From contig JAHEDK010000002.1 of the NCBI GenBank assembly GCA_024641245.1, positions 167,136 to 231,135 on the forward strand: a DNA stretch of 64,000 nucleotides. Reading direction: 5' to 3'. The translations under genes and the position numbers were made by a program. Below are positions 33,989 to 51,745 of the stretch, piece after piece. This DNA comes from Actinomycetes bacterium. GTDB lineage: Bacteria > Actinomycetota > Acidimicrobiia > Spongiisociales > JAHEDJ01. The notes under the pieces are model-generated. The model had not been told where the DNA came from. It searched no databases and saw only the letters and a list, made by a program, of their open reading frames with translations. Each line of letters begins with the position of its first letter. Position 1 is the first letter of the stretch.

Positions 33989-34110
33989 TCGGCGACGGCC
34001 CGGAGTCACAACTTCAAGGGCCGTTGGACCCTGTGCCGCGTTGACCTTTGGCAATACGGTGAAGGGCGGAGAGGAACAACTCAACTACATCGGGAGCCGC
34101 TGTGGCAGGA

Positions 34111-34584
34111 ATGAGCCGTCGGACTTTCTTGAGTCGCGCCACCGCGTCGATTGTCGGCGGGATCGGCGCGCTGATGGGCATCCCCACGGTTGCCTATCTC
34201 ATTTCTCCTGCCAAGGCTCGCGGTGGTCTTGGAGTCGAGGCGATCCCGCTCGGGCCTACCAACAAAGTGCCAATCGGGGAACCCACCCTCTTCAAAGCAA
34301 CCATCGAGCGCAAGACCGGATGGGTCACGCAGGCCGAAGAGCTCGCCTTCTACGTCTTCACAGAAGACGGGCGCAACTTCACGGCACTGTCCAACGTTTG
34401 CACGCACCTTGGCTGCCGGGTGCGGTGGGTCGGCAACGAGAAACAGTTCTTCTGCCCTTGCCACAATGCCGTCTTCACCGAAACCGGGAAAGTGGTTTCG
34501 GGCCCACCGCCCAGAGCCCTAGACCAGTACGAGCTGTCGGTTGAAGGTGACCAGTTGTTCGTCGTCGGGAAGGTCGAAGCATGA
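34111..34584 (+). CDS. Rieske [2Fe-2S] iron-sulfur subunit of a cytochrome b6-type complex (module 1), Tat-targeted
   Basis: MSRRTFLSRA twin-arginine signal. CTHLGC ... CPCHNAVF Rieske boxes. An alternative GTG lies 9 nt upstream (34102). Confidence 0.85.
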   Translation: MSRRTFLSRATASIVGGIGALMGIPTVAYLISPAKARGGLGVEAIPLGPTNKVPIGEPTLFKATIERKTGWVTQAEELAFYVFTEDGRNFTALSNVCTHLGCRVRWVGNEKQFFCPCHNAVFTETGKVVSGPPPRALDQYELSVEGDQLFVVGKVEA

Positions 34585-35270
34585 TCCAGAAGCTCAGTGC
34601 TTGGTTCGAAGAGCGGATGGGATGGAAGCCGATCTGGACGGCACTGGCGCTCCGCAACATCCCCAAGGTCAACTGGCTGTACACGCTGGGCAGCGCCACG
34701 CTCCTCGTCACAGTGAACCAGATTCTGACCGGCATCCTCCTCACCATCTACTACGTCCCCAGCCCTCAGGATGCCTACAACAGCGTTGCCTTCATAACGA
34801 ACGAGATCACTGCCGGCTGGCTCATCAGAGGGCTGCATCATTGGGGTGCCAGTGCGATGGTCGTCCTGGCCGGACTCCACATGCTGCGGGTGGTCTTCCA
34901 CGGCGCCTATAAGTTCCCCCGCGAAATCACCTGGTTCACCGGACTCGGCCTCCTGGCCGTGACGATGGCCTTCGGATTCACCGGGTACTTGCTGCCGTGG
35001 GATCAGAAGGCTTACTGGGCTACCACGGTGGGTACCCGAATGCTGGAGGTGACACCCGTCATCGGTGATTGGCTGCTCCGGATCGCCCGCGGTGGGGAAG
35101 AGCTGTCGGCCGTGACGCTCACCCGGTTCTACGGAACCCATGTATGGGTGCTCCCGTCGGTGCTCCTGCTACTCCTGGGTATCCACCTCTTTCTGGTCGT
35201 CCGCGTCGGCATCAGCGCACCTCCGACACCCAAGGAGACAGACGAGAAGCCCAAAGTGTGGTTCGAATAA
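34581..35270 (+). CDS. Cytochrome b6-like (N-terminal four-helix di-heme b subunit), module 1
   Basis: ATG overlaps the Rieske stop (ATGA). His pairs on helix B (HHWGASAMVVLAGLH) and helix D (THVWVLPSVLLLLLGIH). Confidence 0.85.
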   Translation: MIQKLSAWFEERMGWKPIWTALALRNIPKVNWLYTLGSATLLVTVNQILTGILLTIYYVPSPQDAYNSVAFITNEITAGWLIRGLHHWGASAMVVLAGLHMLRVVFHGAYKFPREITWFTGLGLLAVTMAFGFTGYLLPWDQKAYWATTVGTRMLEVTPVIGDWLLRIARGGEELSAVTLTRFYGTHVWVLPSVLLLLLGIHLFLVVRVGISAPPTPKETDEKPKVWFE

Positions 35271-37669
35271 TGAAACGCGAAGAACGCTCCAAATACCTCG
35301 AGGAGTACGCAGAGGACAAGAAGAAGGGCATCCCGTTCTTCCCGGACGCCGTGTTCAAGGACGTCCTGGTTGCATTGATCGTGTTGATCATTCTCATCGG
35401 CCTCGCCTACTTCGCAGGCGCCCCGCTCGAAGAACGTGCGAATCCATCCGACAGCGACTACACACCTCGACCGGAGTGGTACTTCCTCTGGCTCTTCCAA
35501 CTGCTCAAGTACTTTCCGGGCAACCTCGAGTTCGTCGGCGTCATCCTCCTGCCTGCCCTCGGATTCGCCATCCTCTTCGCCATGCCGTACCTGGACAGGA
35601 CCAAGCTCCGTCACTTCCGCAACCGCAGTTGGGTGATGGCATCAACCGGCGTCGCCGTGGTAGCCATGGGGTTTCTCACAGTCCAATCCATCAGGGAGAC
35701 CCCGGCGCCGGCCGACGTGAGCGGCACCATCAACGCCGCCGTTCTCTTCACCGAGAATTGCTCCGTATGCCACGGCACATCGATCGATGTCCCGACCGGG
35801 ATAAACCTGCATGAGACGATTGCCGGGGGTCACGAGGGGATGCCGGCCTTCGCAGCCACTCTGTCGACCGATGAAATCGATGCCCTCGCAGGATTCCTGG
35901 TCTCTCCGCAGGGAGGGGCGATATTCACCGCCAACTGCGCGGCATGCCACGATTCGAGTGACCTCGCCGCCGCCACCCCGTTCCAGCTCCAGGACGCCCT
36001 GAATCAAGGCACCGCCTACGCGCCGCATGATGGACTCGACATACCCGACTGGTCCGAGGTCCTCTTCGGCCAGGATCGAACCGCGCTCCTCAACTTCTTG
36101 CTTGCTCCGGACGGCCAGCGCCTCTACACGCTCTACTGCTCCGAATGTCACGGAACCTCGATCAGCTGGGAAGGGGAACGAGACGAACTCGAAGCGCTCA
36201 TCCGCCAGGGCGGCAACCACCTCGAGATGACCCAGTGGAGGGACGTGCTGCCGGAGGACCAGATCACCGAACTCGCTCTGTTCGTCGTCGAACCATCCAC
36301 GGCTCCCGGGGGCGAGCAACTGTTTGCACAGCACTGCTCGAGTTGTCACGGCGTGCGGGTGCCGAGCGCTCCCGACATAGAAACCGCCTACAACATCATC
36401 GCCGACGGTGCAGAGCACCGATCGATGCCTGTCTGGGGCGACGTTCTCACCGAGGAGCAGCTAACCGCACTCACAACCTACACGCTCGAAGCCAGTCGCG
36501 GCACACCGGTCATCGTCGGCCAGCAACTGTTCGGTCAATTGTGCTCGTCGTGCCACGGTGACTTCGGTGAAGGCGGCCCGAACCCCGCCGACCCCATCAG
36601 AATCATCCCTCCGATCAGTACGGCGAGCTATTTGGAGACCCGGGACGACGCCACGTTGCGCGCCATCATCTCAAAGGGTCAGTCGGACCAGGGCATGTCG
36701 CCTTTCCTGGAGAGCGAAGGTGGACCGCTGACCGAGGACGAGGTGAATGCCGTGGTTGCGTTCCTCCGTTCGTGGGAATCGGATCCGCCGGTCGATTTGC
36801 CGCCCGATCTTGCCCGTGGACCCGTCGCGGGTGGAAGCGTGCAGGTGTATGCGGCGTTCTGCGCCCAATGCCACGGAGCAGATGGGGCAGGCGGCCCCGA
36901 TTTGGTCGGTCCTTCCTTGACCTCGGCAGAATTCCAGGATTCCTTCACCGATGAGCAACTGCACGAGGCCATCGACCTCGGCCATGCTGCTACTTCGATG
37001 ATCGCCTGGGGCGAGGTCCTCACCGCCGATCAGATCCAGGGACTCGTCGACCACATCCGCTCGCTGGGCGGACGCGGTACCCTGCAGACGATCGTCTACG
37101 AACGCGACATTGCTCCGATCTTCCAGGCGTCTTGCGCCGGTTGCCACGGGTCGTCGGGGGGTTGGGATGCATCCACCATGGAGTCCGTGATCGGCAGCGG
37201 AAGCAGCGGGCCGGCCGTCGTCGCCGGCGATCCCGACGGGAGTCATCTCGTGCAGCGCCTTCGTGGCGAGGGCAACTTGATGCCCCCGGCCGGAGCGCTG
37301 CCGGACAACCAACTCGATCTGATCGTGCAATGGATTGCCGGGGGAGCAACCGCCGAAGTGACAACAGGCGACGCGCAATCCGGCGGCGGCGACATCGGTG
37401 ATTACACGTGGACGAAGGATGTCCAGCCGATCCTGCAGGCCAGTTGCGCGGCCTGCCACGGATCGTCCGGGGGTTGGTACGCGGGGACGTACAGCTCCAC
37501 GATCAACAGCGGCGACAGCGGTCCGGCCGTCGTCCCTGGGAATGCCGACGACAGTTCGATGATCCAACGACTGCTCGGCAACGGCAACCTGATGCCGCCG
37601 GGAGCTCCGCTTTCGGAAGAACAGATCGCCGTCCTGATCTACTGGGTCAACAGCGGCGCCAAGGAATAG
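35270..37669 (+). CDS. Cytochrome b subunit IV-like domain fused to an octaheme c-type cytochrome (two C-terminal PSCyt1-like domains)
   Basis: TAATG overlap with cyt b6. Three TM helices with Qo-site PEWYF motif, then 8 CxxCH (CSVCH, CAACH, CSECH, CSSCH, CSSCH, CAQCH, CAGCH, CAACH). The last two sit in CxxCHG..GG-containing repeats. Confidence 0.8.
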   Translation: MKREERSKYLEEYAEDKKKGIPFFPDAVFKDVLVALIVLIILIGLAYFAGAPLEERANPSDSDYTPRPEWYFLWLFQLLKYFPGNLEFVGVILLPALGFAILFAMPYLDRTKLRHFRNRSWVMASTGVAVVAMGFLTVQSIRETPAPADVSGTINAAVLFTENCSVCHGTSIDVPTGINLHETIAGGHEGMPAFAATLSTDEIDALAGFLVSPQGGAIFTANCAACHDSSDLAAATPFQLQDALNQGTAYAPHDGLDIPDWSEVLFGQDRTALLNFLLAPDGQRLYTLYCSECHGTSISWEGERDELEALIRQGGNHLEMTQWRDVLPEDQITELALFVVEPSTAPGGEQLFAQHCSSCHGVRVPSAPDIETAYNIIADGAEHRSMPVWGDVLTEEQLTALTTYTLEASRGTPVIVGQQLFGQLCSSCHGDFGEGGPNPADPIRIIPPISTASYLETRDDATLRAIISKGQSDQGMSPFLESEGGPLTEDEVNAVVAFLRSWESDPPVDLPPDLARGPVAGGSVQVYAAFCAQCHGADGAGGPDLVGPSLTSAEFQDSFTDEQLHEAIDLGHAATSMIAWGEVLTADQIQGLVDHIRSLGGRGTLQTIVYERDIAPIFQASCAGCHGSSGGWDASTMESVIGSGSSGPAVVAGDPDGSHLVQRLRGEGNLMPPAGALPDNQLDLIVQWIAGGATAEVTTGDAQSGGGDIGDYTWTKDVQPILQASCAACHGSSGGWYAGTYSSTINSGDSGPAVVPGNADDSSMIQRLLGNGNLMPPGAPLSEEQIAVLIYWVNSGAKE

Positions 37670-37811: not shown

Positions 37812-39608
37812 ATGGAGAAACTTCACTTCTTCGACGAGAACATCCCCTGTCTCGCCGCCTGTCCGGTCAACACGAATGCCGGCATGTACGTTGCCGCCAT
37901 CGCAGACGGACAGGATGAACTGGCCTATCTAACCGCTCGCCTCCCCAACCCGTTCGCCTCCGTCTGCGGTCGGGTTTGTGCGGCGCCATGCGAGGACGCC
38001 TGTCGGCGCGGCGAAATCGACAAGCCCATCGCCATCCGGGCGCTCAAGCGATTCGTCACCGATCAATTCGGCGTCGAATCCGGCATGGATACCTACCGGC
38101 AGGTCGCCGCCCCTGCTCTCGAGTCGCGATCACAAAGCGTCGGGATTGTCGGAGGGGGCCCGGCCGGCCTGGCCGCCGCCCACGACCTCCGCCGCCTCGG
38201 CTACGGCGTCACGCTGTACGAAGCCACCGGTCAGCTCGGCGGCATGATGCTGCTGGGGATCCCCGAGTACCGCCTTGATCGATCCCTCCTGGCGGCGGAG
38301 ATCAAGGCCATCACCGACCTGGGCGTCGAGGTTCGGTTGAACACGAAACTCGGCGATGGCATCACGCTCGATGACCTCCGCCGGCAGCACGATGCCCTAT
38401 TCGTGGCCATCGGGGCGACCCTCGGACGCGGACTCGACCTCGAAGGCCACGACGCAGACGGGGTGTTGAAGGCGATCGAGTACCTGATCAACGCCAACCA
38501 GGGGTTCGCAACCGACGTCGGTCAGAAGGTGGTCGTAATCGGTGGCGGCGACGTGGCGATGGATGCAGCAAGGACCGCGCTACGAGCTGCAACCTACGAT
38601 GAGATCGCCCGCCGCCATGCCGAATACGACGAAGAGGACGGGCGCTCATCCATGACGGAAGCCCTCGACGTGGCTCGCACGGCTGCCCGGACTGGTGCTC
38701 AGGACATAACCATCATGTCACTCGAGGCCAAACACGAGATGCCGGCGTCGGAGTTCGAGGTCGAAGAGGCCGAGCACGAGGACATCAAGTTTGTCAACCG
38801 GCGCGGTCCCGCCCGGATACTCACCGCCGATGGCAAGGTCACCGGCATCGAGACGATCGGGGTCACGCGCGTTTTCGACGAGAACGGCCGGTTCTCCCCT
38901 GAATTCGACGATGCAGATCGGCTGACGCTGGAGGCAGACACCATCATCATGGCTATCGGCCAGGCGATCGATGTTGAGGCACTGGGAGCGAACGGCCCTG
39001 AGTTGAGTCCTCGCAAGACAATCCAAGTGGGTGAGGACAGCCTGGCGACTTCGCTTCCGATGGTATGGGCCGGCGGCGATGCAGCCAGGGGCCCGCGCAC
39101 TCTCATCGATGCGATCGCAGACGGCCGGATTGCGGCCCGTGAGATCCACGAGGCGTTTGGCGGCAGCTTCGCCGAGCAGGATACCGGAACCATGGTGCAA
39201 CTGGACCAGTTCCACCGTCTCGACGACATCTACGACCGGGTCCCCCGGGTCGCCGTGCCCACGCTGCCGACGGACCGGCGCATCGGTCTGGCAGAAGTCG
39301 AAACAGGGTTCACCGTCGAAGAGGCCAGGTGTGAGGCACAGAGGTGTCTGCGCTGCTTCGCCAACATCCTGCTCGATACCGACATTTGTGTTTTATGCGC
39401 GCTGTGCGCCGACGTCTGCCCGCTCGACCTGATTTCGCTGGTTCCCTCGGAGGACATTCACCCAGACGAGCCGGGTGGCACGGCGTTAATGTTGAACGAG
39501 CAAAGCTGCATCCGTTGCGCGCTGTGTATTGAGCGATGCCCGACAGATGCACTGTCGATGGGACTGTGGACCGGAGTGGGAGTGCCGAAATTGGGAGCAC
39601 CGGTATGA
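37812..39608 (+). CDS. GltD-like NAD(P)H-dependent FAD/iron-sulfur oxidoreductase with C-terminal 2x[4Fe-4S] ferredoxin domain
   Basis: N-terminal Cys cluster (CLAACPVNTN, CGRVCAAPCEDAC). Two dinucleotide-binding GxGxxG motifs (VGGGPAGLAAA, VIGGGDVAMDAA). C-terminal CLRCF...CVLCALCADVCP and CIRCALCIERCP. Confidence 0.8.
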   Translation: MEKLHFFDENIPCLAACPVNTNAGMYVAAIADGQDELAYLTARLPNPFASVCGRVCAAPCEDACRRGEIDKPIAIRALKRFVTDQFGVESGMDTYRQVAAPALESRSQSVGIVGGGPAGLAAAHDLRRLGYGVTLYEATGQLGGMMLLGIPEYRLDRSLLAAEIKAITDLGVEVRLNTKLGDGITLDDLRRQHDALFVAIGATLGRGLDLEGHDADGVLKAIEYLINANQGFATDVGQKVVVIGGGDVAMDAARTALRAATYDEIARRHAEYDEEDGRSSMTEALDVARTAARTGAQDITIMSLEAKHEMPASEFEVEEAEHEDIKFVNRRGPARILTADGKVTGIETIGVTRVFDENGRFSPEFDDADRLTLEADTIIMAIGQAIDVEALGANGPELSPRKTIQVGEDSLATSLPMVWAGGDAARGPRTLIDAIADGRIAAREIHEAFGGSFAEQDTGTMVQLDQFHRLDDIYDRVPRVAVPTLPTDRRIGLAEVETGFTVEEARCEAQRCLRCFANILLDTDICVLCALCADVCPLDLISLVPSEDIHPDEPGGTALMLNEQSCIRCALCIERCPTDALSMGLWTGVGVPKLGAPV

Positions 39609-40342
39609 CATTGGGCCAACGAATCCGCGAAAGCACGATAGGTCGTTCGATCTGGCGCGCCACCGACCGAACCACCGAACGCGACCAGGCGGCCGGTCAC
39701 TGGGCGAACTTCTTTCTGCACATCTACCCGGTGAAAGTGCGCAAGAAGGAGATCACGTTCCGCTATTCCTGGTATCTAGGTGTGGCGTCGGTGGTCCTGT
39801 TCGGATCGCTGATCGTTTCGGGCATCTACCTGATGTTCTTCTACGTCCCGTCGCCTGCCCAGGCCTACGGCGACATCCTCAACCTGCAAACGCGGGTCGC
39901 GTTCGGACAGTACATCCGCAACGTGCACCGCTGGTCGGCTCACCTCATGGTGCTGGTGGTGGCCGCGCACATGGCCCGGGTGTTTTATCGAGGGGCATAC
40001 AAGAAACCCCGCGAATTCAACTGGGGTATCGGCGTGATCCTCCTCGTGCTCACGCTGCTCCTTTCGTTCACCGGCTACCTGCTCCCCTGGGACCAGCTCG
40101 CCTACTGGGCGGTCACGGTCGGCACCGAGATGGCCGCCTTCGTCCCGCTGATCGGGGACACCGTCAAGGAAATGATGCTGGGTGGGCCGGTGGTTGCTTC
40201 GTCGACGCTGCTGCGGTTCTACGTTCTGCATGTCGCCGTTCTGCCCACGGCTGTCGTTCTCCTCATCACAATCCATATGTGGAGATGGCGCAAAGACAGC
40301 ATGCTCGACGCGGCGAAGGAGGGTGTTGATGTCGACGCCTAG
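39605..40342 (+). CDS. Cytochrome b6-like di-heme b subunit, module 2
   Basis: ATGA overlap with the GltD-like gene. Heme-ligand His pairs (HRWSAHLMVLVVAAH; LHVAVLPTAVVLLITIH). PWDQLAYW motif. Confidence 0.85.
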   Translation: MTLGQRIRESTIGRSIWRATDRTTERDQAAGHWANFFLHIYPVKVRKKEITFRYSWYLGVASVVLFGSLIVSGIYLMFFYVPSPAQAYGDILNLQTRVAFGQYIRNVHRWSAHLMVLVVAAHMARVFYRGAYKKPREFNWGIGVILLVLTLLLSFTGYLLPWDQLAYWAVTVGTEMAAFVPLIGDTVKEMMLGGPVVASSTLLRFYVLHVAVLPTAVVLLITIHMWRWRKDSMLDAAKEGVDVDA

Positions 40343-40865
40343 ACCAGATCAGGAAAATCCTGAGATCGTCGCCGGACAACGGGTGCTCGGGGTTGTTCCA
40401 GGCAAGCCGCCGGGCGGCGACCGCAAGGTTCTGAGCGAGCAGGAACCGGTCATGGTCTGGCCGCACCTACTCGTCCGCCACGGGGTGGCGGCGCTGGTGG
40501 TCATCGCCGTCGTTCTGGTGCTTGCCATATTCTTCGATGCCCCGCTGCGTGAGATCGCCAACCCCACGCTGACGCCCAACCCGGAAAAGGCCCCCTGGTA
40601 TTTCGCGGCGCTCCAGGAGCTGCTCTCGATGTTCCATCCGCTGGTGGCCGGTGTGCTGGTCCCGGGCGCCATCGTCCTCGGGCTCTTCGCGCTTCCGTAT
40701 GTGGATCGGACTTCGACGATCGAGCCGCGGTTCCGCAAGGTGGCGGTGGCGACGTTCACGATCTTCATGGTCGTGTGGATAGTCCTGACGGTTATCGGAT
40801 TCGCCTTCCGCGGCCCCAACTGGGGTTGGGTGTGGCCATGGCAAGAGTGGTACGGAGAGCTATGA
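40329..40865 (+). CDS. Cytochrome b subunit IV-like protein, module 2 (variant Qo motif APWY)
   Basis: Start overlaps the cyt b6 stop. Three TM helices. TPNPEKAPWYF replaces the PEWY box. Confidence 0.75.
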   Translation: MSTPRPDQENPEIVAGQRVLGVVPGKPPGGDRKVLSEQEPVMVWPHLLVRHGVAALVVIAVVLVLAIFFDAPLREIANPTLTPNPEKAPWYFAALQELLSMFHPLVAGVLVPGAIVLGLFALPYVDRTSTIEPRFRKVAVATFTIFMVVWIVLTVIGFAFRGPNWGWVWPWQEWYGEL

Positions 40866-41368
40866 GCAACGGAATCGGTCGGAGAGAATTCCTATCCCGG
40901 GCCTGGAAGTGGGGTGCCGCCCTCATCGGTGTCGCCGGCGGTTGGACCACGTGGGATATCCTGCAGCCCCGGGTCACCGGAGGCTTTGGTGGCGTCATCA
41001 AGACCAAGGCAGCCGACACAGTGCCGGACACCAACGTCGAATCCATCCGGGCCGCCAGAACCTACCTGACGAAGATCGACGGGCAGGTTGTAGCCCTCTC
41101 CGAGAAATGCCCGCACCTCGGTTGCCGGGTGCCGTGGTGTGATTCGTCCGGACAGTTCGAGTGCCCGTGCCACGGCTCGGTCTTCAACCGGGCGGGCGAG
41201 TACCGCGCAGGGCCCGCTCCCCGCGGAATGGACCGCTACGAGTTCGAGACGATCGACGGCATCGTCTACGTAGACACCGGAGCACCGGTATCCGGGCCGG
41301 CAATCGGTGTGGAGACCCTCAACGAACCCGTACGAGGGCCATCGTGTGAGGACAGCTCCCATGGGTGA
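40862..41368 (+). CDS. Rieske [2Fe-2S] protein, module 2, Tat-targeted
   Basis: ATGA overlap. RREFLSRA signal. CPHLGC ... CPCHGSVF boxes. Confidence 0.85.
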   Translation: MSNGIGRREFLSRAWKWGAALIGVAGGWTTWDILQPRVTGGFGGVIKTKAADTVPDTNVESIRAARTYLTKIDGQVVALSEKCPHLGCRVPWCDSSGQFECPCHGSVFNRAGEYRAGPAPRGMDRYEFETIDGIVYVDTGAPVSGPAIGVETLNEPVRGPSCEDSSHG

Positions 41369-41825
41369 GCGTCCGGTTGACCAGGAACTCGAACAGTCGA
41401 CCGTCAGATGGATGCAGGCCGGACTGGCCCTGATGGTCGTCCTGGTGCTGGCGTTTCCCGCCTACCGGCTCCTCGAACCTACCAACCGCGAAGAAGCACG
41501 CGACCTCTTGACGGAAGAACTCGCCGTCCAGGGCGAAGAGCTATTCGCGGGGCAGTGCGCCTCCTGTCACGGCGAAAAGGGGCTGAATGGACCGATCGGT
41601 CCGTCGCTCAACTCGAAGCAGTTCCTGGAGGCGGCCACCGACAGCCAGATCATCAGCCTCGTCTCGGTCGGCGTCCCGGGCTCTCAGATGGGCGCCTACT
41701 CGATCGACTTCGGAGGCCCACTGACACTCGAGCAAATCACCGGCATCGCAACCTATCTGCGCTCGCTGGAGAAAGACGCCCCGGACAATCCTGACTGGCG
41801 AGCAGTAGTAACGCCGGGGAGCTAG
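41361..41825 (+). CDS. Membrane-anchored monoheme c-type cytochrome (c6/c553-like)
   Basis: Start overlaps the Rieske stop. N-terminal TM helix. Single CASCHG heme site. Confidence 0.7.
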   Translation: MGERPVDQELEQSTVRWMQAGLALMVVLVLAFPAYRLLEPTNREEARDLLTEELAVQGEELFAGQCASCHGEKGLNGPIGPSLNSKQFLEAATDSQIISLVSVGVPGSQMGAYSIDFGGPLTLEQITGIATYLRSLEKDAPDNPDWRAVVTPGS

Positions 41826-41948: not shown

Positions 41949-42371
41949 CTACGCGTCCGTCGGGACCTCGTAGGGGTGCCCTTCGTCCTCGGGCGCTTGG
42001 TACTGCTCGTCGTGTTTGACGACCAGCTGGTCGCTGCGGAAGACGTCACCGTCCCAGGCGCCTTCGACGATCGCACCGACGCCTTCGCGGAACAGTTCCG
42101 GTGGGGCTCCCTGGTGCACGATGTGCACTTCATGGGCACCGTCGGACACGGTGAACTCGACTCCATCCGAGGTGGCAACCAGTGTCCCGACTTCGACCTG
42201 ACCGCCGAGCCGGAACCGCTCACCATCGGGGAACTGAGCCCTCTGCTCGATAGCTTCGTTGGGGGTCAAGTAGTAGACGAGGTTCTCGCCGAGGCTGAGA
42301 AACACCATCCATCCGATGATCACAACGATCGCTCCGATGGCGGGAAGTACGAACCAGCGATATCGAGTCAT
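41949..42371 (-). CDS. ccmE: Cytochrome c maturation heme chaperone CcmE
   Basis: N-terminal anchor, OB-fold, C-terminal VVKHDEQY heme-binding motif. Confidence 0.85.
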   Translation of the reverse strand: MTRYRWFVLPAIGAIVVIIGWMVFLSLGENLVYYLTPNEAIEQRAQFPDGERFRLGGQVEVGTLVATSDGVEFTVSDGAHEVHIVHQGAPPELFREGVGAIVEGAWDGDVFRSDQLVVKHDEQYQAPEDEGHPYEVPTDA

Positions 42372-42372
42372 G

Positions 42373-42486
42373 TCAGCCCTCCACCCGGCGGCGGACGCTG
42401 CGCAGGCGCACAGTCAAGAACACCGCATATCCGATCATGAAGCCGTACACCACCGTGTAGGCAAAAACGACCCATCCGTTAGACAT
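42373..42486 (-). CDS. ccmD: Heme exporter protein CcmD (37 aa, single TM)
   Basis: Not in the ORF track. Translation is MSNGWVVFAYTVVYGFMIGYAVFLTVRLRSVRRRVEG. Its start overlaps the ccmC end, and its stop abuts the ccmE start. Confidence 0.55.
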   Translation of the reverse strand: MSNGWVVFAYTVVYGFMIGYAVFLTVRLRSVRRRVEG

Positions 42487-43204
42487 CTCGCACCTTCTCG
42501 AGGTTGGGAGCCGTGATGGCGGCACCGGCGGGCGTGGCATCAGCGGCGGCGGATTGTTCTTCGAGTTGTTCCTCGCCCCTGGCGATGGCCGTCTTGACGC
42601 TCATGAAGGCGAGATAGACCACGGTGAACGCTCCAACGTTGCTGAGCAACGCCAGCAGGATCTCTCCATCGATCGGAGAATCCGGTCGCACCACCGTGAT
42701 CCCCTGGTGCAACGTGCGAACGATGATCACCGAAACGTAGGACAGCGGCACGAGGAAGAAGGCCACGATGCCCAGCACCGCGGATCTCGTCGCCCGCATG
42801 GCCGGGTCGGGAATGCTGCGGCGCAAAGCCAGGTAACCGAGGTAGACGAAGAACATGAGGGCCGTCGTCATCATGCGGGCATCGCCCCAGTCCCAGAACG
42901 TCCCCCACACCGGGTAACCCCAGATCATGCCGGTCATGAGCGCCAGCGCGGTGAAGAACACGCCGACCGAGACGCTGGACTCGGCGATTCGATCGTAAAC
43001 GGGCTTGCGTCTCGCCAGCCACAGGATCGAGGCGGCGAACGTCACAAGAAACGAGAGGTAGGCAAGCCACGCCGAAGGTACGTGCACGTACATGATGCGG
43101 GTGTAGTCGCCCTGCAACTGATCGAGCGGCGCCTGGCCACCGAAGTAGAAGCCGACCAGCACCGCTGCCAGTGCGATCAACCCGAGTATTCGATGTCTAT
43201 TCAA
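42479..43204 (-). CDS. ccmC: Heme exporter protein CcmC
   Basis: WWD domain (GYPVWGTFWDWGD) and conserved His. Confidence 0.85.
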   Translation of the reverse strand: MNRHRILGLIALAAVLVGFYFGGQAPLDQLQGDYTRIMYVHVPSAWLAYLSFLVTFAASILWLARRKPVYDRIAESSVSVGVFFTALALMTGMIWGYPVWGTFWDWGDARMMTTALMFFVYLGYLALRRSIPDPAMRATRSAVLGIVAFFLVPLSYVSVIIVRTLHQGITVVRPDSPIDGEILLALLSNVGAFTVVYLAFMSVKTAIARGEEQLEEQSAAADATPAGAAITAPNLEKVRDV

Positions 43205-43881
43205 CGTGAGGCCTCCTCGAGGAATCGGGCGGTCAGCACACCTACCACTGCCAGCCCGAGTACCACGGCAAGTAGCAGAAGGATGGGAGTGAGGATACTT
43301 GACTTCTGAGCCAACGCTTCATACGTCTGTGATGCTCCGACGAGCAGCGGCAACGCCAGCGGTGCCACCAGCAGCGGTGCCAGCGTGTTACGAGAGCGCA
43401 GACCGGCCGTGATACCGGAGGCGAGCGTACCGATGAGCGCCAGGCCGACGGCCATCAGCAGAAGGACCAAAATCAGGATCGCCCACCCCTCTACCGGGTC
43501 CGGGTTGTAGAGGATGATCGTGGCGGGCGCAAGCACTCCTTCGAACACGAGCAACAGGAGGACGCTCGCCACAACCCTGCCCGCGAACTGCGCGGCCGGG
43601 TCCACGCCGAGCAACACCATCATCTCGCGATTGGCCGAACTCTCTGTGGCCGACTGGCGGAACGTGACCAGCATCCCGAACAGCAGGGTCACGACCCAGA
43701 ACATGCCCGGTCCGATCGAGGCGATGAGTGGACGGTCGGTCCCGATCGCCAGCGGGATGAGCAGCAGCGCAACCGCTCCAAACGGGATCGTGATGTTCAG
43801 GACCTCGCCGGTCCGTCCTTCGACCCGCAGATCCTTCAACCCGATCTCATATGCCTGGCCCCAGAACGACGGACCGCTCAT
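43201..43881 (-). CDS. ccmB: Heme exporter permease CcmB
   Basis: Six-TM ABC-2-type permease in a ccm context. Overlaps ccmC and ccmA by 4 nt each. Confidence 0.8.
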   Translation of the reverse strand: MSGPSFWGQAYEIGLKDLRVEGRTGEVLNITIPFGAVALLLIPLAIGTDRPLIASIGPGMFWVVTLLFGMLVTFRQSATESSANREMMVLLGVDPAAQFAGRVVASVLLLLVFEGVLAPATIILYNPDPVEGWAILILVLLLMAVGLALIGTLASGITAGLRSRNTLAPLLVAPLALPLLVGASQTYEALAQKSSILTPILLLLAVVLGLAVVGVLTARFLEEASR

Positions 43882-44534
43882 GATGAGCTCCCCGCGATCA
43901 CGATCCCACCCGTCAGCTCATAGGTCGATTGCACCAGCGGCAGCATGCGATCGAGTTCGTGGGACACGAAGACGGCGGCGCCACCACGGGAACGGACGTT
44001 CTCGACAACTGCGTCGACGAGTTGTCCGGCCTCTCGATCTAGTCCGGCGTGGGCCTCATCGAGCAGCAGTAGGTCGGGCCTGGTGAGAATCACCCTGGCG
44101 AACTCAACTCGCCGCTGCATACCATGCGACGACTGCTCCGCCCGCCGGTGCTTCGCCCCACCCAGCCCGACCACGTCGAGCATCTCATCTACCCGCTCGT
44201 CAGTGTGGCCCGACAACCGGGCGACGAAGGCGAGATTCTCACGCAGCGTCAACTGCGGGTAGAGCGCCGGTTGATGGCCGATCAGCGCGATCCGGCGCCG
44301 GATCGCAAACGCCGTCGCTTCGCCCATCTCGGTGCCGAACACCGCCACCGAGCCCTCCGTCGGTCGCAGCAACGTGGCCAGCACCCGGAGCAGCGTCGAC
44401 TTTCCCGAACCATTCGGCCCAACGATCCCGGCTGCCTCCCCGGACGGTACCGCCAGCTCCACGCCCTTCAATACCGGCACCCGGCCGTATCGAACGGCGA
44501 CGCCGTGCAGCTGCACTGTGGGAGGTGTGGACAT
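43878..44534 (-). CDS. ccmA: Heme exporter ATP-binding protein CcmA
   Basis: Walker A (GPNGSGKST), ABC signature (SHGMQRR), Walker B (LLLLDEA). Start at MSTPPTVQL. Confidence 0.8.
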   Translation of the reverse strand: MSTPPTVQLHGVAVRYGRVPVLKGVELAVPSGEAAGIVGPNGSGKSTLLRVLATLLRPTEGSVAVFGTEMGEATAFAIRRRIALIGHQPALYPQLTLRENLAFVARLSGHTDERVDEMLDVVGLGGAKHRRAEQSSHGMQRRVEFARVILTRPDLLLLDEAHAGLDREAGQLVDAVVENVRSRGGAAVFVSHELDRMLPLVQSTYELTGGIVIAGSSS

Positions 44535-44804
44535 GACAGACGAGTGTACGCACGCAGCTTCGGGCGCCGAAACGCGACCCCGGATAAACACCACCCGTTC
44601 TCTCCCTTTCGCCACCTTTTCAGGGTTTTATGGCGGGTTTCAACCCAGGCAGGGCCCAAGTGCCCCAGGGCGCGAGGACTTTGCGCTGTTGGTGTGTTTC
44701 CGATATACCCGTATCCTCTGCAATGAGAAACGGGGGACCGACCCTGAATCGCCGCCGGAACGGCTCATTCACACGGTGATCCCCATGGAGGAAGGCACAG
44801 CAAA

Positions 44805-46844
44805 ATGAACGCGACCCTCGGGTATCTCTCGATCCTGGCCGCAGTGGTGGGAGCGCTCGGTATCACCGTGCGGGGTTTCATCGCGATGCGTGATCCGGAG
44901 CGGGCGAACAAAGGGTATCTGGGGTTGCCCGTCATACTGTTCGTGTCCGGAGCCGTCGGCGCAATGTTCTTCCTGGAACTCGGGCTTCTCACCGACGACT
45001 TCTCGATCAAGTACATCGCCAACAACTCCTCGACCACCACCCCGTTTCTCTTCAAGGTCGCCTCTGGATGGGCATCGCTGGAGGGATCGATCGTTTTGTG
45101 GGGTCTGGTCCTGGCCGGCTTCACATTCGCCGTATACGCACGGTTCTTCAGAAGCGAAAGCGGCGACCGGCTCGCAGCAGGGGCTCTGGCGATCATGGGG
45201 CTCATCTCTCTTTACTTCTTCGGGCTAATGGCCACAATCTCCGACCCATTCGCTCGCTGCGTGCAAACGTTCAGCGACGGTGTCGGTTGTGTGACCGGCG
45301 AGAACGCGATCCTCGCCAACGTGATCTCCTCCCCGATCGAAGGGCGCGGCGCCAACGCACTGCTCCAGAACCATTGGCTCATGGCCCTGCATCCACCAAC
45401 GCTCTACGTCGGCTATGTCGGGCTCAGCGTCCCCTTTGCGTTTGCCATCTCGGCGCTCCTCCTCAAAACCACCGGGGCGGCCTGGCTGACCCGGACCCGC
45501 AACTGGACGGTGTTCGCCTGGATGTTCCTCACTGCCGGCATTGTTCTCGGTGGGCTCTGGTCGTATGAGGTGCTCGGCTGGGGCGGCTACTGGGCATGGG
45601 ACCCGGTTGAGAACGCCTCCTTCATGCCGTGGCTGGTCGCGACTGCCTTCTTGCACTCGTCTGTCGTGCAGGCGAGGCGCGGGATGCTGCAGTCGTGGAA
45701 CTTCGTCCTCGTCATCACGACCTTCGCGCTCACGATTCTCGGCACCTTCTTGACCCGCTCCGGCGTAATCGTTTCGGTTCACAGCTTCTCGCAGTCCGCC
45801 ATCGGGCCTGCCCTGTTGATCTTCCTGGTGGTCGTGCTGCTGGGATCGCTCGGGCTCTTCGCGTCAAGGGCTCACACCATCGCCTCTTCTCCCCGGCTCG
45901 ATTCACTCAGCAGCCGGGAAGGGGTGTTCTTGTTCAACAACCTTCTGCTCACCGTGTTCGCGTTCATGGTGCTGACAGGGACGCTCTACCCGCTCTTCGT
46001 TGAGGCGTTCTCCGACTCGACGGTGGGCGTCGGTCGTCCGTTCTTCGATCGCATGGCGATCCCGTTGTCCTTCCTGTTGCTGCTGGCGATGGGCATCGGA
46101 CCGGTCTCGCCCTACCGGGCGGCGAGCGCCCGCGTCGTGTGGGAGCGGATTCGCTGGCCCGTCCGGGTTGCCCTCGGCGCCGCCGCGCTGGCCGTCGTGT
46201 TCGGCTATCGGAACTCGTTCCTGCTGCTCGGTGTTCTGGCCGCCGTGTTCGTCATGGGCGTGATCATCCGCAACCTCTACGACGCCGCCCGGACCAGGGC
46301 AGACAAACTCGGTATCGGACGGAGACAGGCCGCCGCCCGGATCATGCGCGGCGACCCGCACTATTGGGGTGGCCAGATCTCCCACCTGGGCGTTGCGATA
46401 CTGGCACTGGGCATCGCCTTCTCAGCCAACCTGTCGGAGACCGCCACGGTGACCATCGACGCCGGAGATACGGTCAACTTCGCCGGCTTCGAGGTGACCT
46501 ACGAACAGGAGTTCAGCCGCCAGGAACCGGGCCGGTTCGTCACCGGAGCAGACATCACGGTGACCCGGGACGGGTCGGTCGTCGGTACGTACCAGCCACG
46601 GCTGAATCAGTACGGCAACACGCGGGAATCGATCGCCACCCCAGAGGTCGACACCATGTTCTCAGGCGACCTGTACCTCTCGCTCCGCAGCATCGATCCT
46701 TCATCCGTGACCCTCGAGGTCTATTGGTTCCCGTTCATCTGGCTCATCTGGGTTGGAGGCTTCCTGGCGGCCGCCGCCGGGGTCTGGGGATTCGCGGTCA
46801 AGAAGCCCGAACGTTCGGTTGCACGGGACGACACGCGTGTCTGA
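44805..46844 (+). CDS. ccmF: Cytochrome c-type biogenesis heme lyase CcmF
   Basis: About 15 TM helices, WWD domain (WGGYWAWDPVEN), conserved periplasmic His. Confidence 0.9.
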   Translation: MNATLGYLSILAAVVGALGITVRGFIAMRDPERANKGYLGLPVILFVSGAVGAMFFLELGLLTDDFSIKYIANNSSTTTPFLFKVASGWASLEGSIVLWGLVLAGFTFAVYARFFRSESGDRLAAGALAIMGLISLYFFGLMATISDPFARCVQTFSDGVGCVTGENAILANVISSPIEGRGANALLQNHWLMALHPPTLYVGYVGLSVPFAFAISALLLKTTGAAWLTRTRNWTVFAWMFLTAGIVLGGLWSYEVLGWGGYWAWDPVENASFMPWLVATAFLHSSVVQARRGMLQSWNFVLVITTFALTILGTFLTRSGVIVSVHSFSQSAIGPALLIFLVVVLLGSLGLFASRAHTIASSPRLDSLSSREGVFLFNNLLLTVFAFMVLTGTLYPLFVEAFSDSTVGVGRPFFDRMAIPLSFLLLLAMGIGPVSPYRAASARVVWERIRWPVRVALGAAALAVVFGYRNSFLLLGVLAAVFVMGVIIRNLYDAARTRADKLGIGRRQAAARIMRGDPHYWGGQISHLGVAILALGIAFSANLSETATVTIDAGDTVNFAGFEVTYEQEFSRQEPGRFVTGADITVTRDGSVVGTYQPRLNQYGNTRESIATPEVDTMFSGDLYLSLRSIDPSSVTLEVYWFPFIWLIWVGGFLAAAAGVWGFAVKKPERSVARDDTRV

Positions 46845-47250
46845 TTCGATTCGCAAGATCGCGGCGGCGGTGGTGACTATCGGCCTGGCGGTTGTCGTCG
46901 TAATCGGCCTCATCCAGGGCGACCGAACCGATGAAGATCGCGCCCGGTCCATCGGCTCCAGAGTGAAGTGTCCCGTTTGCCAGGGCGTAGCCATTGCCGA
47001 TTCTCCTTCGGAAACTGCCAGAGCGATGATGGACGTCGTCGAAGAGCGAATCGCAGACGGGTGGTCGGACAGACAGATCATCGACTACTTCGCGGAGCGC
47101 TACACCGACAGCATCGTCATCGACCCGCCCTTCAGCGGGAATACGCTGCTCGTCTGGCTGCTGCCGATCCTGGCAGTAGTCGCAGGCTTCTTCATGATCT
47201 TCTCCCGGCGCAAGACGCCGGTGCCAAAACCCGATGAGGTGAAACAGTGA
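46837..47250 (+). CDS. ccmH: Cytochrome c-type biogenesis protein CcmH
   Basis: GTG overlaps the ccmF stop (GTGTCTGA). CPVCQG motif, then a TM anchor. Confidence 0.75.
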   Translation: MSDSIRKIAAAVVTIGLAVVVVIGLIQGDRTDEDRARSIGSRVKCPVCQGVAIADSPSETARAMMDVVEERIADGWSDRQIIDYFAERYTDSIVIDPPFSGNTLLVWLLPILAVVAGFFMIFSRRKTPVPKPDEVKQ

Positions 47251-48080
47251 GCAACTTCAACCAGGAGTCATACGATCGGGCGGTCGCCCGCAAGGAACTG
47301 GCCTTGACCGATCTCGAAGAGCTGGCCCAGCAGGTGGACGACGGTGAGATCGACGCGCCCACCGCGGCAGGACTCCGGAGCGGCTACGAGGCTGAACTCG
47401 GCGCGGCCGAAGCCGAACTGGCCAGACTCGGTCCACCGCCCACTCCCAAGAAGTCGCCCGGTCAAGCGTCGACCAAACGTGCGCCGAGCGAGAACGGACG
47501 GCCGGCCCGGAAGTCGAGCGACTTGAATACTCGTCTGCTGGTCGGCGCCGGCATTCTCATCGTCGCCCTCGTCGTGATTCTCATCTCGGTCCAGAATTCG
47601 GCGCAGCCGGATCCGGCCGCGATGGGCACCCAGGTGACGACGGCAAGCGGCGAGGACCCCTGCGCGGAGCTGGCCGACGCGTTGACCAGTCACTCCGACA
47701 ACGGCTTTCGTCTCGCACTGGCCGACTGCTACGCAGACGTCGGAAACGCCATGTCGGCGATCGAGCACTACCGGGCCGTCGCCGATGCCGAAGGTGCCGC
47801 CGACGGCGAGGTCGCACGGGCAAACGTGGGACTCGGCTTCCTCAACCTTCAAATCGGTGAGCTCGCCAAGGCCGCCGACTACATGCGCGTGGCGCTCGAG
47901 CGCGACGCCGCCAACGTCGAAGCTCAATACTTCCTGGGCATGATGCTCGTCTACGACCTCGGCGATCCGGCCGCAGGAGCCCCATATCTCGAGTCGGTAC
48001 TCGCAACTCCCGACCTGCCGGAGACGGTGATCCTCGAAATCCAGGCAGCGCTCGATGTCGCGGCGGGCGAGGGCTCATGA
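47247..48080 (+). CDS. CcmI/CycH-like TPR-containing cytochrome c biogenesis accessory protein
   Basis: ATGA-type overlap with ccmH. N-terminal coiled region, a TM helix, C-terminal TPR-like helices. Confidence 0.45.
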   Translation: MSNFNQESYDRAVARKELALTDLEELAQQVDDGEIDAPTAAGLRSGYEAELGAAEAELARLGPPPTPKKSPGQASTKRAPSENGRPARKSSDLNTRLLVGAGILIVALVVILISVQNSAQPDPAAMGTQVTTASGEDPCAELADALTSHSDNGFRLALADCYADVGNAMSAIEHYRAVADAEGAADGEVARANVGLGFLNLQIGELAKAADYMRVALERDAANVEAQYFLGMMLVYDLGDPAAGAPYLESVLATPDLPETVILEIQAALDVAAGEGS

Positions 48081-48685
48081 CCAACACGGACCTCGCCGTC
48101 GAGCCGACCCCGGAAGCACCGCAACGCAACCTCAAACTGTGGATAACGACCGGCCTGGCGGCGGTGGCCTTCATCGCGCTCGCCCTCGTGTTCAACAGCC
48201 GGTTTGGCGTTGACCCCCGGGTCGTCGAATCCCCGCTCATCGGGCAACCCGCCCCGAACCTCGAACTCGAGGTTCTCGAGCAGGACGCCATCTCTGGCCC
48301 CATGGCAATGTCGGAATTTCGCGGCAGCGTGGTCGTGGTCAACTTCTTCGCCTCTTGGTGCATCCCCTCCTGTCGCGATGAGCACCCCCATCTCACCGCG
48401 GCCGCCGCCGACTACGCCGACCGCGGCGTCCGGTTCGTTGGAATAGCCACCAGCGACACACCCGAAGACACACGCGGGTTCCTCGACGCGCTCGGGTGGG
48501 GAACCAACTACACCTACCTCAACGATCCCGATGCCAGGGCAGGAGTCGAGTTCGGCACATTCGGAGTTCCCGAAACGTTCGTGATCGACCGGGAGGGGCT
48601 CGTCACGCACAAGTTCACGGGGCCGGTCACATACGATGAACTGGTCGTCGAGTTGGAGAAGGCGTTGACCGAGACGGGTTCATGA
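48077..48685 (+). CDS. ccmG: Thiol:disulfide interchange protein CcmG/DsbE (TlpA-like thioredoxin), unusual CxxxC (WCIPSC) active site
   Basis: Membrane anchor plus thioredoxin fold. The active-site DNA reads TGG TGC ATC CCC TCC TGT. Confidence 0.75.
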   Translation: MTNTDLAVEPTPEAPQRNLKLWITTGLAAVAFIALALVFNSRFGVDPRVVESPLIGQPAPNLELEVLEQDAISGPMAMSEFRGSVVVVNFFASWCIPSCRDEHPHLTAAAADYADRGVRFVGIATSDTPEDTRGFLDALGWGTNYTYLNDPDARAGVEFGTFGVPETFVIDREGLVTHKFTGPVTYDELVVELEKALTETGS

Positions 48686-48794: not shown

Positions 48795-49484
48795 ATGCAG
48801 AGAACAAACGAGCTGACACAAGGCGCGCGGCGGCTGGCCTGGTTGACACTTTTGACGCTCGCATGGTTGTTGTGGATGAGTCAGGCGGCCGCCCACGCCC
48901 AGGAACTCCCGGTACGGGATGATCCGTTCTGGAAGACGGACACCTGCCTCGGCTGCCATCAGCAGTCGGACCTGTCGGTGACGCTGCCATCCAACGAGAC
49001 GCTGCGCCTCGCCGTGTATAGAGGCGCGTACGAAGATTCGGTGCATGGTCGAACAGGAGTGGCCTGCCGCAATTGCCATCTCGACATCACGGGGTATCCG
49101 CACCCTGATCTCACCGCCGGAAGCCTGGCCGAGTTCTCAGAACAGCAGGCCAGTTCTTGCGAGATGTGTCACCGTGACCACTACGGCAAAGTGGCGGATG
49201 AGCTGCATGAGGAGTCCGGTGGGTTGCTGTGCTTCGAGTGTCATGATCCGCACACCACCGGCACCGGCTCCGTCTCGGCAGAAGTGCAAGCCTCCTGCAA
49301 CGCCTGCCACTCCGAGGGTATCGCCATTCCTGTCGAGGGGATTCATGCCGCGCCCGAGGTACCTGTCGCGGAGACCACAAGCGGCGTTACAATCCTGCTC
49401 ATCCTCGGCGGAATCTTCGTCGGTTTCGTCGTCCTCGTCTGGCTGGCGACGGTGGCTTGGCGTGTCGTGCGCGACCGAAGCTGA
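48795..49484 (+). CDS. Pentaheme c-type cytochrome with signal peptide and C-terminal TM anchor
   Basis: CLGCH, CRNCH, CEMCH, CFECH, CNACH. C-terminal hydrophobic helix (ILLILGGIFVGFVVLVWLATVAW). Confidence 0.8.
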   Translation: MQRTNELTQGARRLAWLTLLTLAWLLWMSQAAAHAQELPVRDDPFWKTDTCLGCHQQSDLSVTLPSNETLRLAVYRGAYEDSVHGRTGVACRNCHLDITGYPHPDLTAGSLAEFSEQQASSCEMCHRDHYGKVADELHEESGGLLCFECHDPHTTGTGSVSAEVQASCNACHSEGIAIPVEGIHAAPEVPVAETTSGVTILLILGGIFVGFVVLVWLATVAWRVVRDRS

Positions 49485-49625
49485 TCGGGCCCGTTTCCGC
49501 AGGTTAGCTTGTAGCAATTCCCAATCTTGTGCGCCCTTTCACATGGGTCGAATGACCCTACGCGATCTGCGCGCGGATCCGTCATCATGTCGGTACACGA
49601 GTCGAGTAGCTCCCGGGGAGGAAGC

Positions 49626-51698: not shown

Positions 51699-51707
51699 CG
51701 TGACAGA

Positions 51708-51733
51708 GGGGGCCGGGCACACACCCGGCCCCC
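51708..51733 (+). terminator. Hairpin GGGGGCCGGG-CACACA-CCCGGCCCCC 10 nt after the decaheme stop, followed by TCGTTGTT
   Basis: Perfect 10-bp GC stem, then a T-rich tract, between convergent genes. Confidence 0.45.
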
Positions 51734-51745
51734 TCGTTGTTCCCC

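Follow-up and report, generated by a model that had tools for sequence, protein, structure and literature searches.

A 64,000-nucleotide stretch of genomic DNA from an Actinomycetes bacterium of the class Acidimicrobiia (GenBank assembly GCA_024641245.1, contig JAHEDK010000002.1, positions 167,136 to 231,135; hereafter the window) carries at 35270..37669 on the forward (+) strand a gene in which subunit IV (SUIV) of a Rieske/cytochrome b (Rieske/b) complex is fused to a tail with eight CxxCH haem-binding motifs. We conclude with high confidence that, in a quinol oxidase of the b6-type Rieske/b class, this fusion takes the place of c1/f as the cytochrome c subunit. In respiration and photosynthesis alike, Rieske/b complexes are the principal quinol oxidases that conserve energy, and it is their cytochrome c partner that steers the electrons. 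In our judgement there is an even chance that the complex described here is a proton-motive, probably menaquinol, oxidase which feeds a membrane-anchored multihaem network in monoderm bacteria.

The fusion is one continuous gene

The gene is a single open reading frame (ORF) of 799 codons plus stop, which reads through with no internal stop codon. The start codon ATG and the TAA that ends the cytochrome b6 gene upstream overlap by one base (TAATG), and the N-termini of the homologues align with the fusion from residue 1, which favours this ATG, the start proposed in the initial annotation of this DNA. A longer version opening with TTG at 35069 was rejected; that codon falls within the b6 gene in another frame, and the homologues begin at the ATG. 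The eight CxxCH motifs stand at residues 164, 223, 290, 356, 425, 531, 622 and 726; the protein has 16 cysteines, none of them outside these motifs. From the Cys and His frequencies of the neighbouring genes, approximately 0.002 CxxCH motifs would be expected by chance in 799 residues. The claim that SUIV runs unbroken into a tail with eight such motifs is thereby confirmed. The same annotation had placed haem sites 1–6 roughly 45–85 residues apart, which needs correction: successive sites are separated by 59, 67, 66, 69, 106, 91 and 104 residues, giving a range of 59–106 along the fusion.

When the whole protein was compared with Pfam, Cytochrom_B_C matched residues 57–158 (44.1 bits, cut-off 20.7), Cytochrome_CBB3/Cytochrom_C covered the remainder, and PSCyt1 matched two stretches (54 bits, cut-off 22). 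Public annotation describes the product merely as 'c-type cytochrome' or 'mono/diheme cytochrome c family protein'. A scan of 33.5–42.5 kb for promoters and terminators yielded nothing that exceeds the shuffled expectation.

A frameshift or misassembly might have joined separate SUIV and multihaem genes, or some of the CxxCH motifs might be haem-free; by the initial annotation's own account, either would have overturned its claim. Broken relatives do exist. Putative five-haem members (L037, L040 and L041) were rejected as a separate form, since they are frameshifted or N-masked copies, mostly from long-read metagenome-assembled genomes (MAGs), that end out-of-frame or masked. The identical 799-residue protein, with the same neighbours, is present in an NCBI MAG contig and in two independent read-set assemblies. 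Among the best 120 database relatives (47–88% identical), which served as our homologue set, all 120 have SUIV and a multihaem tail in a continuous single ORF, and the first six or seven haem sites occupy nearly the same positions. The junction, consisting of the third helix, a short linker and the first haem domain (D1), is constant in length. Because the CxxCH motifs and the candidate distal ligands are invariant, the haem sites appear to be under purifying selection. The fusion gene is therefore genuine and effectively not an assembly artefact, and we leave artefact or decay only the slightest chance.

The fusion completes a b6-type Rieske/b complex

The SUIV domain comprises residues 1–143 (35270..35698, +), as delimited by Pfam Cytochrom_B_C, AlphaFold2 helices, hydropathy and PDB sequence matches. 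Residues 1–151 alone scored 46.1 bits on PF00032 (cut-off 20.7). AlphaFold2 predicts transmembrane helices at residues ∼24–48, 85–108 and 120–143, with which the hydropathy peaks agree, and the Qo-site motif PEWYF at residue 68 lies in the ef loop between helices one and two. This motif is kept in 119 of the 120 homologues. The PDB sequence matches, over residues 20–119, are to the C-terminal half of cytochrome b (residues ∼216–318) and to b6f subunit IV. With only 27 bits on the equivalog model TIGR01156 (cut-off 127), the SUIV domain is distinct from the cyanobacterial or plastid PetD itself. Profile match, three helices with the Qo motif, and adjoining genes for a split b6 and a Rieske protein all identify the domain as a subunit IV, and the earlier description of a three-helix SUIV with a PEWYF box stands.

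The two genes upstream supply the remainder of the complex. The first (34102..34584, +) encodes the Rieske 2Fe-2S subunit of this complex 1 (Pfam Rieske 48 bits; CTHLGC...CPCHNAVF), bears a twin-arginine signal (SRRTFL) and overlaps the b6 gene by 4 nt. The second (34581..35270, +) encodes a split cytochrome b6 of 229 residues (Pfam Cytochrome_B 170 bits), whose haem ligands H86/H100 (x13) and H187/H202 (x14) show b6-type spacing and which is devoid of Cys, hence of a haem ci site. On NCBIfam this protein scored 239 bits for cytochrome b6 and 224.8 bits for ExtP (ExtP cut-off 290), both below cut-off. The order Rieske, b6, fusion recurs in ∼80 loci, i.e. in practically every related locus. Rules relating Rieske sequence to potential link Ser and Tyr after CPCH to the potential of the cluster; because both residues are absent from the window's protein, its sequence suggests a low-potential, menaquinol-type Rieske centre.

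Because electrons enter via the Rieske protein in every Rieske/b complex, they must do so in this one as well, with SUIV as the anchor. The initial annotation had pictured a conduit starting at the Qo-site subunit itself and running into the periplasm. A chain leading away from the complex is still the most natural reading, while entry directly from the Qo subunit is not, since the Rieske cluster is needed. The periplasm is doubtful too: Acidimicrobiia are a monoderm class, and for that reason the host probably lacks a periplasm in the strict sense.

The haem tail is a chain of class I cytochrome c domains ending in PSCyt1 modules

A linker of ∼10 residues leads from helix 3 to D1. Domains D1–D4 (residues 152–412; 35723..36505, +) are minimal class I cytochrome c units of 59–69 residues each, the class I domains D5 (residues 413–518) and D6 (residues 519–609; together 36506..37096, +) are longer, at 106 and 91 residues, and D7 (residues 610–713) and D8 (residues 714–799; together 37097..37666, +) are PSCyt1 modules. 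The assignment to class I follows from the profiles PF13442/PF00034 together with CxxCH, distal Met and fold. In a domain-by-domain Pfam comparison D1 and D3–D8 exceeded the Cytochrome_CBB3 cut-off, and D2 remained under it (21.9 versus 27). D7 and D8 scored 34.1 and 35.2 bits on PSCyt1 (PF07635, cut-off 22), so that the description of the last two haem sites as PSCyt1-like was accurate for both. The two modules are 55% identical and each contains CxxCHGSSGGW and LMPP. PSCyt2 and PSD1, the usual planctomycete partners of PSCyt1, gave no Pfam match in the window proteins scanned.

In all forms with six to eight haems PEWY is followed by the first CxxCH at the same distance of 96 residues, as compared with 100–129 in dihaem forms. 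Because this distance is fixed, D1 fits the membrane-proximal acceptor of the Rieske cluster, i.e. the role of c1 or f. In the alignment of the 120 sequences every CxxCH of haems 1–7 is invariant. Invariant candidate distal methionines are M191 (D1), M320 (D3), M386 (D4), M476 (D5), M577 (D6) and M671 (D7), with M775 as the candidate in D8; H317 in D3 and H383 in D4, beside M320 and M386, are further invariant distal candidates. D2 contains no Met, and H253 is its sole invariant distal candidate. From these patterns we infer seven His/Met haems and one His/His haem.

This composition differs from that of the dense bis-His multihaem cytochromes (MtrC/OmcA, c7/c3), which have ∼30–40 residues per haem: the fusion has 59–106 residues per haem, and its Met ligands are conserved. 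The whole fusion scored below the Pfam cut-offs for Cytochrom_c3_2 and MtrC II–IV. For Cytochrome_C7 the summed score of 33.2 bits exceeded the cut-off of 24.8, yet no single stretch passes alone.

AlphaFold2 modelled the full-length fusion with a mean predicted local distance difference test (pLDDT) score of 75 and a predicted template modelling (pTM) score of 0.31; the single domains were folded at moderate to good confidence. Confidence was low at residues 144–152, 513–518 and 701–708 and in the ef loop (residues 50–70). Residues 513–518 are a Pro-rich hinge between D5 and D6, and residues 701–708 are the Gly/Thr/Ala/Asp-rich linker between D7 and D8, whose low pLDDT is that of a flexible segment. 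Haems 1–6 alone (residues 150–620) gave a pLDDT of 85 and a pTM of 0.55. In our reading these models show a semi-rigid, hinged core and not a single compact body, and a continuous haem 'wire' along the predicted structure is plausible. Taken with the hinges, with the long linkers of several homologues and with the duplication of PSCyt1 (both described below), the pTM of 0.55 versus 0.31 looks like the signature of a core-plus-tether architecture.

Six- to ten-haem fusions form a common family

A scan of one genome per species found relatives of the fusion encoded at more than 546 loci. Among the best 120, seven CxxCH motifs are present in 102 proteins, eight in 17 and ten in one. Forms with six to eight haems occur in Chloroflexota and Acidimicrobiia, in hosts that are all uncultured; by their record titles, the seven-haem majority belongs to Anaerolineales and other Chloroflexota, and eight haems mark the window's own Acidimicrobiia clade. 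What had been presented as a singular expansion is the eight-haem branch of a common family with six to ten haems. The six-haem forms (L030, L033, L034 and L035) are real: they are without D6, and a Pro/Thr/Ala-rich linker joins D5 to PSCyt1. In several homologues a long low-complexity linker of Pro, Thr, Ala and Glu precedes the PSCyt1 module. PSCyt1 has undergone one duplication in the Acidimicrobiia clade and separate ones in three or more Chloroflexota-like proteins, among them one with four copies.

Smaller fusions are found more broadly. SUIV fusions with two haems abound in Anaerolineae, Elusimicrobia, Bryobacterales and Scalindua, and a four-haem protein occurs once, in Caldilineae. 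A single class I cytochrome c joined to SUIV or cytochrome b has been described for the 'PEWY-cyt c / PDWY-cyt c' clades, and a trihaem c7 fusion for Ignavibacterium (Kao & Hunte 2014, PMC4122944). The set of known fusions used for comparison in the initial annotation was therefore wrong. A description of a hepta- or octahaem SUIV fusion was not found in the literature searched, which is not proof of absence. Apparently undescribed is the combination of 6–10 haems on SUIV, a His/Met class I chain, variable tethered PSCyt1 and PSCyt1-bearing CbcL-like and NapC-like partners.

Multihaem cytochrome genes surround the operon in Chloroflexota

In Chloroflexota the operon lies in an island that also contains Ccm genes, a HisKA_3/GerE two-component system and genes for six- and eight-haem cytochromes. 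The gene for a nine-haem 'MtrC-like' cytochrome overlaps that for an FdnI/HydC-like cytochrome b ending in PSCyt1, and this pair stands beside the fusion operon in most Chloroflexota loci (e.g. L003:4496-6827). An NrfH/NapC-like cytochrome is likewise PSCyt1-terminated, and a 718-residue ten-haem cytochrome and multihaem/Fe-S/NrfD modules are often present as well. Because three different quinol oxidoreductases share the PSCyt1 end, a common acceptor is suggested.

At ten loci, 122 ORFs neighbouring the operon were assigned to Pfam families, of which the 25 most frequent were considered. This census was led by Cytochrome_C7 and Cytochrom_c3_2 (29 ORFs each), MtrC/MtrF domain II–IV (17 ORFs), Paired_CXXCH (16 ORFs), PSCyt1 (13 ORFs) and NapC/NirT (12 ORFs), with Cytochrome c554 (9 ORFs), Ni_hydr_CYTB (7 ORFs) and NrfD (6 ORFs) further down. 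No cytochrome oxidase family, COX1 included, was among these 25. Likewise, a motif regular expression, run without a positive control, detected no haem-copper oxidase subunit I within 10 kb in ∼85 loci.

These results bear on a different use of the haem chain, namely as a tethered cytochrome c for aerobic or denitrifying respiration, in which the PSCyt1 end would reach a haem-copper oxidase or nitrite and nitrous oxide reductases in the same membrane, an elongated version of the logic of Bacillus QcrC and of actinobacterial QcrC in the III2-IV2 supercomplex. Oxidases typically have class I His/Met domains as partners, and the nearest matches of the fusion in sequence and fold are CcoP, small c552/c6 cytochromes, the caa3 c domain and actinobacterial QcrC. 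The two host phyla count as monoderm and would have no outer membrane to retain a soluble cytochrome c. We also count in favour of an oxidase partner that Ward et al. found congruent phylogenies of bc complexes (type unstated) and A-family oxidases in Anaerolineae relatives (PMC5826079). The neighbourhoods tell against it: oxidase subunit I did not appear near the ∼85 loci nor COX1 in the leading families of the census, and the conserved neighbours are instead multihaem cytochromes and other quinol:cytochrome modules. Moreover, related Anaerolineae have dihaem SUIV fusions at loci where no multihaem neighbours were seen, and a plain complex III would more readily be sought among these. We consider service to an oxidase or a denitrifying reductase rather unlikely.

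The window contains counterparts of the Chloroflexota island

Three genes of the window correspond to members of the Chloroflexota island. A ten-haem, lipoprotein-like cytochrome with lipobox LAAC (49527..51698, +) is the orthologue of the Chloroflexota 718-residue multihaem cytochrome, which is encoded there downstream of the fusion operon (phmmer E 9e-258 to L003:14902-17058). A nine-haem cytochrome with signal peptide and C-terminal membrane anchor (61800..62909, +; phmmer E 6e-136) is the orthologue of the 'MtrC-like' gene upstream of that operon, and the next gene, which runs off the window (62902..64000, +; phmmer E 5e-96), encodes an FdnI/HydC-like dihaem cytochrome b (b561) with PSCyt1. 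The complete b561-PSCyt1 gene is available at L089:2906-4408; its product of 500 residues matches Ni_hydr_CYTB and PSCyt1 and has CxxCH at residues 340 and 432. The orthologue at L003 has NCBIfam similarity to the formate dehydrogenase gamma subunit and hydrogenase cytochrome b.

The b561 protein of the window's organism has two PSCyt1 modules versus one in the Chloroflexota orthologue (386 residues), which parallels the eight versus seven haems of the fusion. A PSCyt1 copy number set organism-wide agrees with the two-module b561 protein of the window's organism, but it was rejected because it fails in two Chloroflexota with independent duplications, where the NapC-like neighbour keeps one module. 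The PSCyt1 modules of the b561- and NapC-like proteins have GGHPG or PHF/PHY where the fusion has LMPP (L003:5667-6827, L003:6844-8541, L089:2906-4408 and the partial genes upstream in L090–L092). This exchange of motifs hints that the distal ligand, and hence the potential, may differ among homologous PSCyt1 modules.

Between the fusion and these cytochromes lies a complete System I cytochrome c maturation set (41949..48685), recognized by Pfam and by the CPVC motif of CcmH, with ccmE, C, B and A on the reverse (−) strand and ccmF, ccmH, a TPR gene and a thioredoxin-like gene on the + strand. Ccm genes also flank the fusion operon in the Chloroflexota loci. Actinobacteria usually use System II, and because a System I set occurs here in a genome of an actinobacterial class, horizontal transfer may have brought in the cytochrome island as a whole. 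Very close similarity links the ten-haem protein to its Chloroflexota orthologue, the E-value of 9e-258 extending over ∼700 residues.

The region 48795..62909 is a dense island with ∼70 CxxCH motifs, which encodes proteins with 5, 10, 6, 11, 10, 10, 8 and 9 haems. Each multihaem cytochrome of the window has a membrane anchor, which may be a signal anchor, a C-terminal helix or a lipobox. The same region also encodes N-terminally anchored proteins of the SurA-like, TPR and NHL-repeat beta-propeller types. On the opposite strand within the island there is an AbiEi-antitoxin-like/REase-like gene (51797..52912, −), and just upstream of ten-haem genes a regulator of the Rrf2 family (∼55937..56362, +). 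Members of this family typically respond to iron-sulfur or redox signals.

A second Rieske/b complex follows the fusion gene

Directly downstream of the fusion, five overlapping genes encode a second Rieske/b complex: a GltD-like NAD(P)/FAD and Fe-S oxidoreductase (37812..39608, +; Pfam Pyr_redox_2, Fer4_20 and Fer4; NCBIfam NAD(P)-binding 458 bits), a cytochrome b6 (b6', 39605..40342, +; 4-nt overlap with the GltD-like gene), a subunit IV (SUIV', 40329..40865, +; overlapping b6' and Rieske'), a Rieske protein (Rieske', 40862..41368, +; CPCHGSVF; overlapping SUIV' and the monohaem c gene) and a monohaem cytochrome c (41361..41825, +; overlapping Rieske'). The gene order is also kept in L086. 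The GltD-like gene is translationally coupled to this second complex and is hence context, separate from the fusion protein. On the ExtP model b6' scored 260.1 bits (cut-off 290). NAD(P)-linked Rieske/b complexes of similar make-up occur in anammox bacteria and in Methylomirabilis; these, according to Dibrova et al., reportedly constitute subfamily G of the cytochromes b.

The presence of two complexes raises the possibility of electron uptake, in which the haem chain would take electrons from an extracellular donor, e.g. Fe(II), the first complex would run backwards on proton-motive force to reduce quinone, and the GltD-linked complex would then make NAD(P)H. Two Rieske/b complexes do stand in one tight gene string, the second with an NAD(P)/FAD/Fe-S subunit, and in Acidithiobacillus separate bc1 complexes serve uphill and downhill electron flow. 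Anammox complexes with such a subunit have been proposed to make NAD(P)H (PMC12954380). The GltD-linked second complex is, however, absent from the Chloroflexota loci examined, so that the pairing is not family-wide, and the genes of the window include no identified iron oxidase of the Cyc2 or MtoA type and none for carbon fixation. Sequence by itself does not tell which way electrons flow. We regard reverse flow as decidedly improbable. At one seven-haem Chloroflexota locus (L023:17120-20600, −) homologues of b6', Rieske' and the monohaem cytochrome c are encoded ∼7–10 kb off, and the pairing of both complexes may not be restricted to Acidimicrobiia.

Relation to known Rieske/b and multihaem systems

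The closest architectural counterpart is QcrC of the Bacillus type, in which the positive-side C-terminus of SUIV carries a class I cytochrome c that replaces c1/f. It shares with the window's complex the operon order of Rieske, split b6 and SUIV-c fusion and the monoderm hosts. Bacillus-type QcrC has one haem, whereas the family described here has six to ten together with terminal PSCyt1 and multihaem neighbours, and the Bacillus b6 protein has the CxGG Cys for haem ci, whereas that of the window is without any Cys. Actinobacterial QcrC of the bcc-aa3 supercomplex, with which the initial annotation had mistakenly compared the fusion, is similar in that membrane-anchored tandem class I c domains replace a soluble cytochrome c, and the two proteins are partly alike in sequence and fold. 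In other respects they differ: actinobacterial QcrC is a dihaem protein that is not fused to SUIV (QcrB being a full-length cytochrome b), and the fusion reached only 68.1 bits on the QcrC model NF050122 against a cut-off of 200, the match being limited to residues 411–572.

In anammox bacteria, the b6-type Rieske/b complexes Kuste4569-4574 and Kustd1480-1485 have a hexa- or octahaem cytochrome c in place of f/c1 (PMC12954380). As judged from the description in that paper, anammox bacteria have the multihaem cytochrome as an independent subunit that brings a helix of its own, next to a five-helix SUIV, whereas the window's fusion joins haem units of the class I and PSCyt1 types to a three-helix SUIV. 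The type of GltD-like oxidoreductase found in the anammox complexes is also the one in the window's second Rieske/b complex.

Geobacter sulfurreducens ExtOPQ, composed of Rieske, cytochrome b and SUIV-like membrane proteins, is encoded within extHIJKLMNOPQS together with 4-, 5-, 10- and 12-haem cytochromes, a cluster implicated in Fe(III) oxide respiration (PMC5877670). The window proteins are related to the ExtP and ExtQ models and are not equivalogs (b6 and b6', 224.8 and 260.1 versus 290 bits; SUIV, 25 versus 150 bits). ExtQ has no haem domains, and Geobacter is a diderm with a porin-like partner, whereas the cytochromes of the window are anchored to the cytoplasmic membrane. A second Geobacter system, CbcL, combines nine haems with a HydC/FdnI-like cytochrome b (PMC6295460), and the same domain content is split over two overlapping genes in the window (61800..62909 and 62902..>64000). 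CbcL and ImcH are inner-membrane quinol oxidases that serve acceptors of different potential (PMC6295460, PMC9129911). With respect to Geobacter CbcL, ImcH and CbcBA, the island around the fusion shows a likeness of system layout, in that different quinol:cytochrome c oxidoreductases stand side by side (the split CbcL-like pair, the NrfH/NapC-like cytochrome, NrfCD-like modules and this Rieske/b complex), and not homology of the fusion protein. CbcBA likewise belongs to the Geobacter set of inner-membrane quinol oxidases, and for the PSCyt1 output module we know of no Geobacter counterpart.

Discussion

The scheme that we favour starts at the cytoplasmic membrane. SUIV would complete the Qo site together with the separately encoded b6 and anchor the fusion, whose C-terminus would lie on the outer (positive) face. 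Electrons from a quinol, probably menaquinol, oxidized at Qo would pass to the cluster of the Rieske protein, exported by the twin-arginine pathway, and from there to haem 1; they would then travel along D1–D5 (and D6 where present) to the terminal PSCyt1 module or modules. The latter may act as a tethered carrier that passes electrons to the membrane-anchored multihaem cytochromes of the island. The complex would in this way provide a Q-cycle entry to a multihaem network, most likely one for extracellular or cell-wall electron transfer, and would work alongside the CbcL-like and NrfH/NapC-like quinol oxidoreductases that share the PSCyt1 output module. We hold the electron path and the hand-over to the island cytochromes with moderate confidence, and infer haem occupancy, transfer order, direction and final acceptor alike.

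Several observations weigh against this scheme. The octahaem content is predicted from motifs, and the domain arrangement is not fixed in the full-length model with its pTM of 0.31. Seven of the eight domains are His/Met class I-like at 59–106 residues per haem, unlike the dense bis-His cytochromes of extracellular electron transfer, and such domains would suit a high-potential acceptor, e.g. an oxidase, equally well. The tie to multihaem cytochromes is one of synteny alone, and in the window itself these are encoded at least 11 kb from the fusion, with the second Rieske/b complex and the ccm genes between. The absence of an oxidase, for its part, relies on a regular expression lacking a positive control and on the 25 most frequent families of a census of ten loci. 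Supply of an oxidase and reverse electron flow, on the other hand, both lack synteny support.

A wider proposal, which goes beyond the scheme above and which we offer as a tentative and on balance doubtful one, is that monoderm Chloroflexota and Acidimicrobiia own a modular type of respiration, in which several unrelated quinol oxidoreductases, namely the Rieske/b6 complex, the split CbcL-like b/nine-haem pair and the NrfH/NapC-like cytochrome, end in a tethered PSCyt1 as a common plug to shared, wall-spanning multihaem cytochromes. High potential and energy conservation would fall to the Rieske/b6 branch with its 6–10 haems, most of them His/Met, how far it reaches would depend on the count of PSCyt1 modules, and a proton-motive bc-type complex would be wired directly into extracellular electron transfer.

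The fusion family is common in environmental Chloroflexota and Acidimicrobiia. If the complex instead serves an oxidase, it would take to an extreme the built-in cytochrome c that Bacillus and actinobacteria already have. Energy conservation by a Q cycle has been thought difficult for low-potential metal respiration. If the complex does feed a multihaem network, these abundant bacteria of soil, sediment and wastewater could run a Q cycle while respiring extracellular or wall-bound acceptors, and the family would offer a tractable model for the export of electrons from monoderm membranes and for conduction along chains of His/Met domains.

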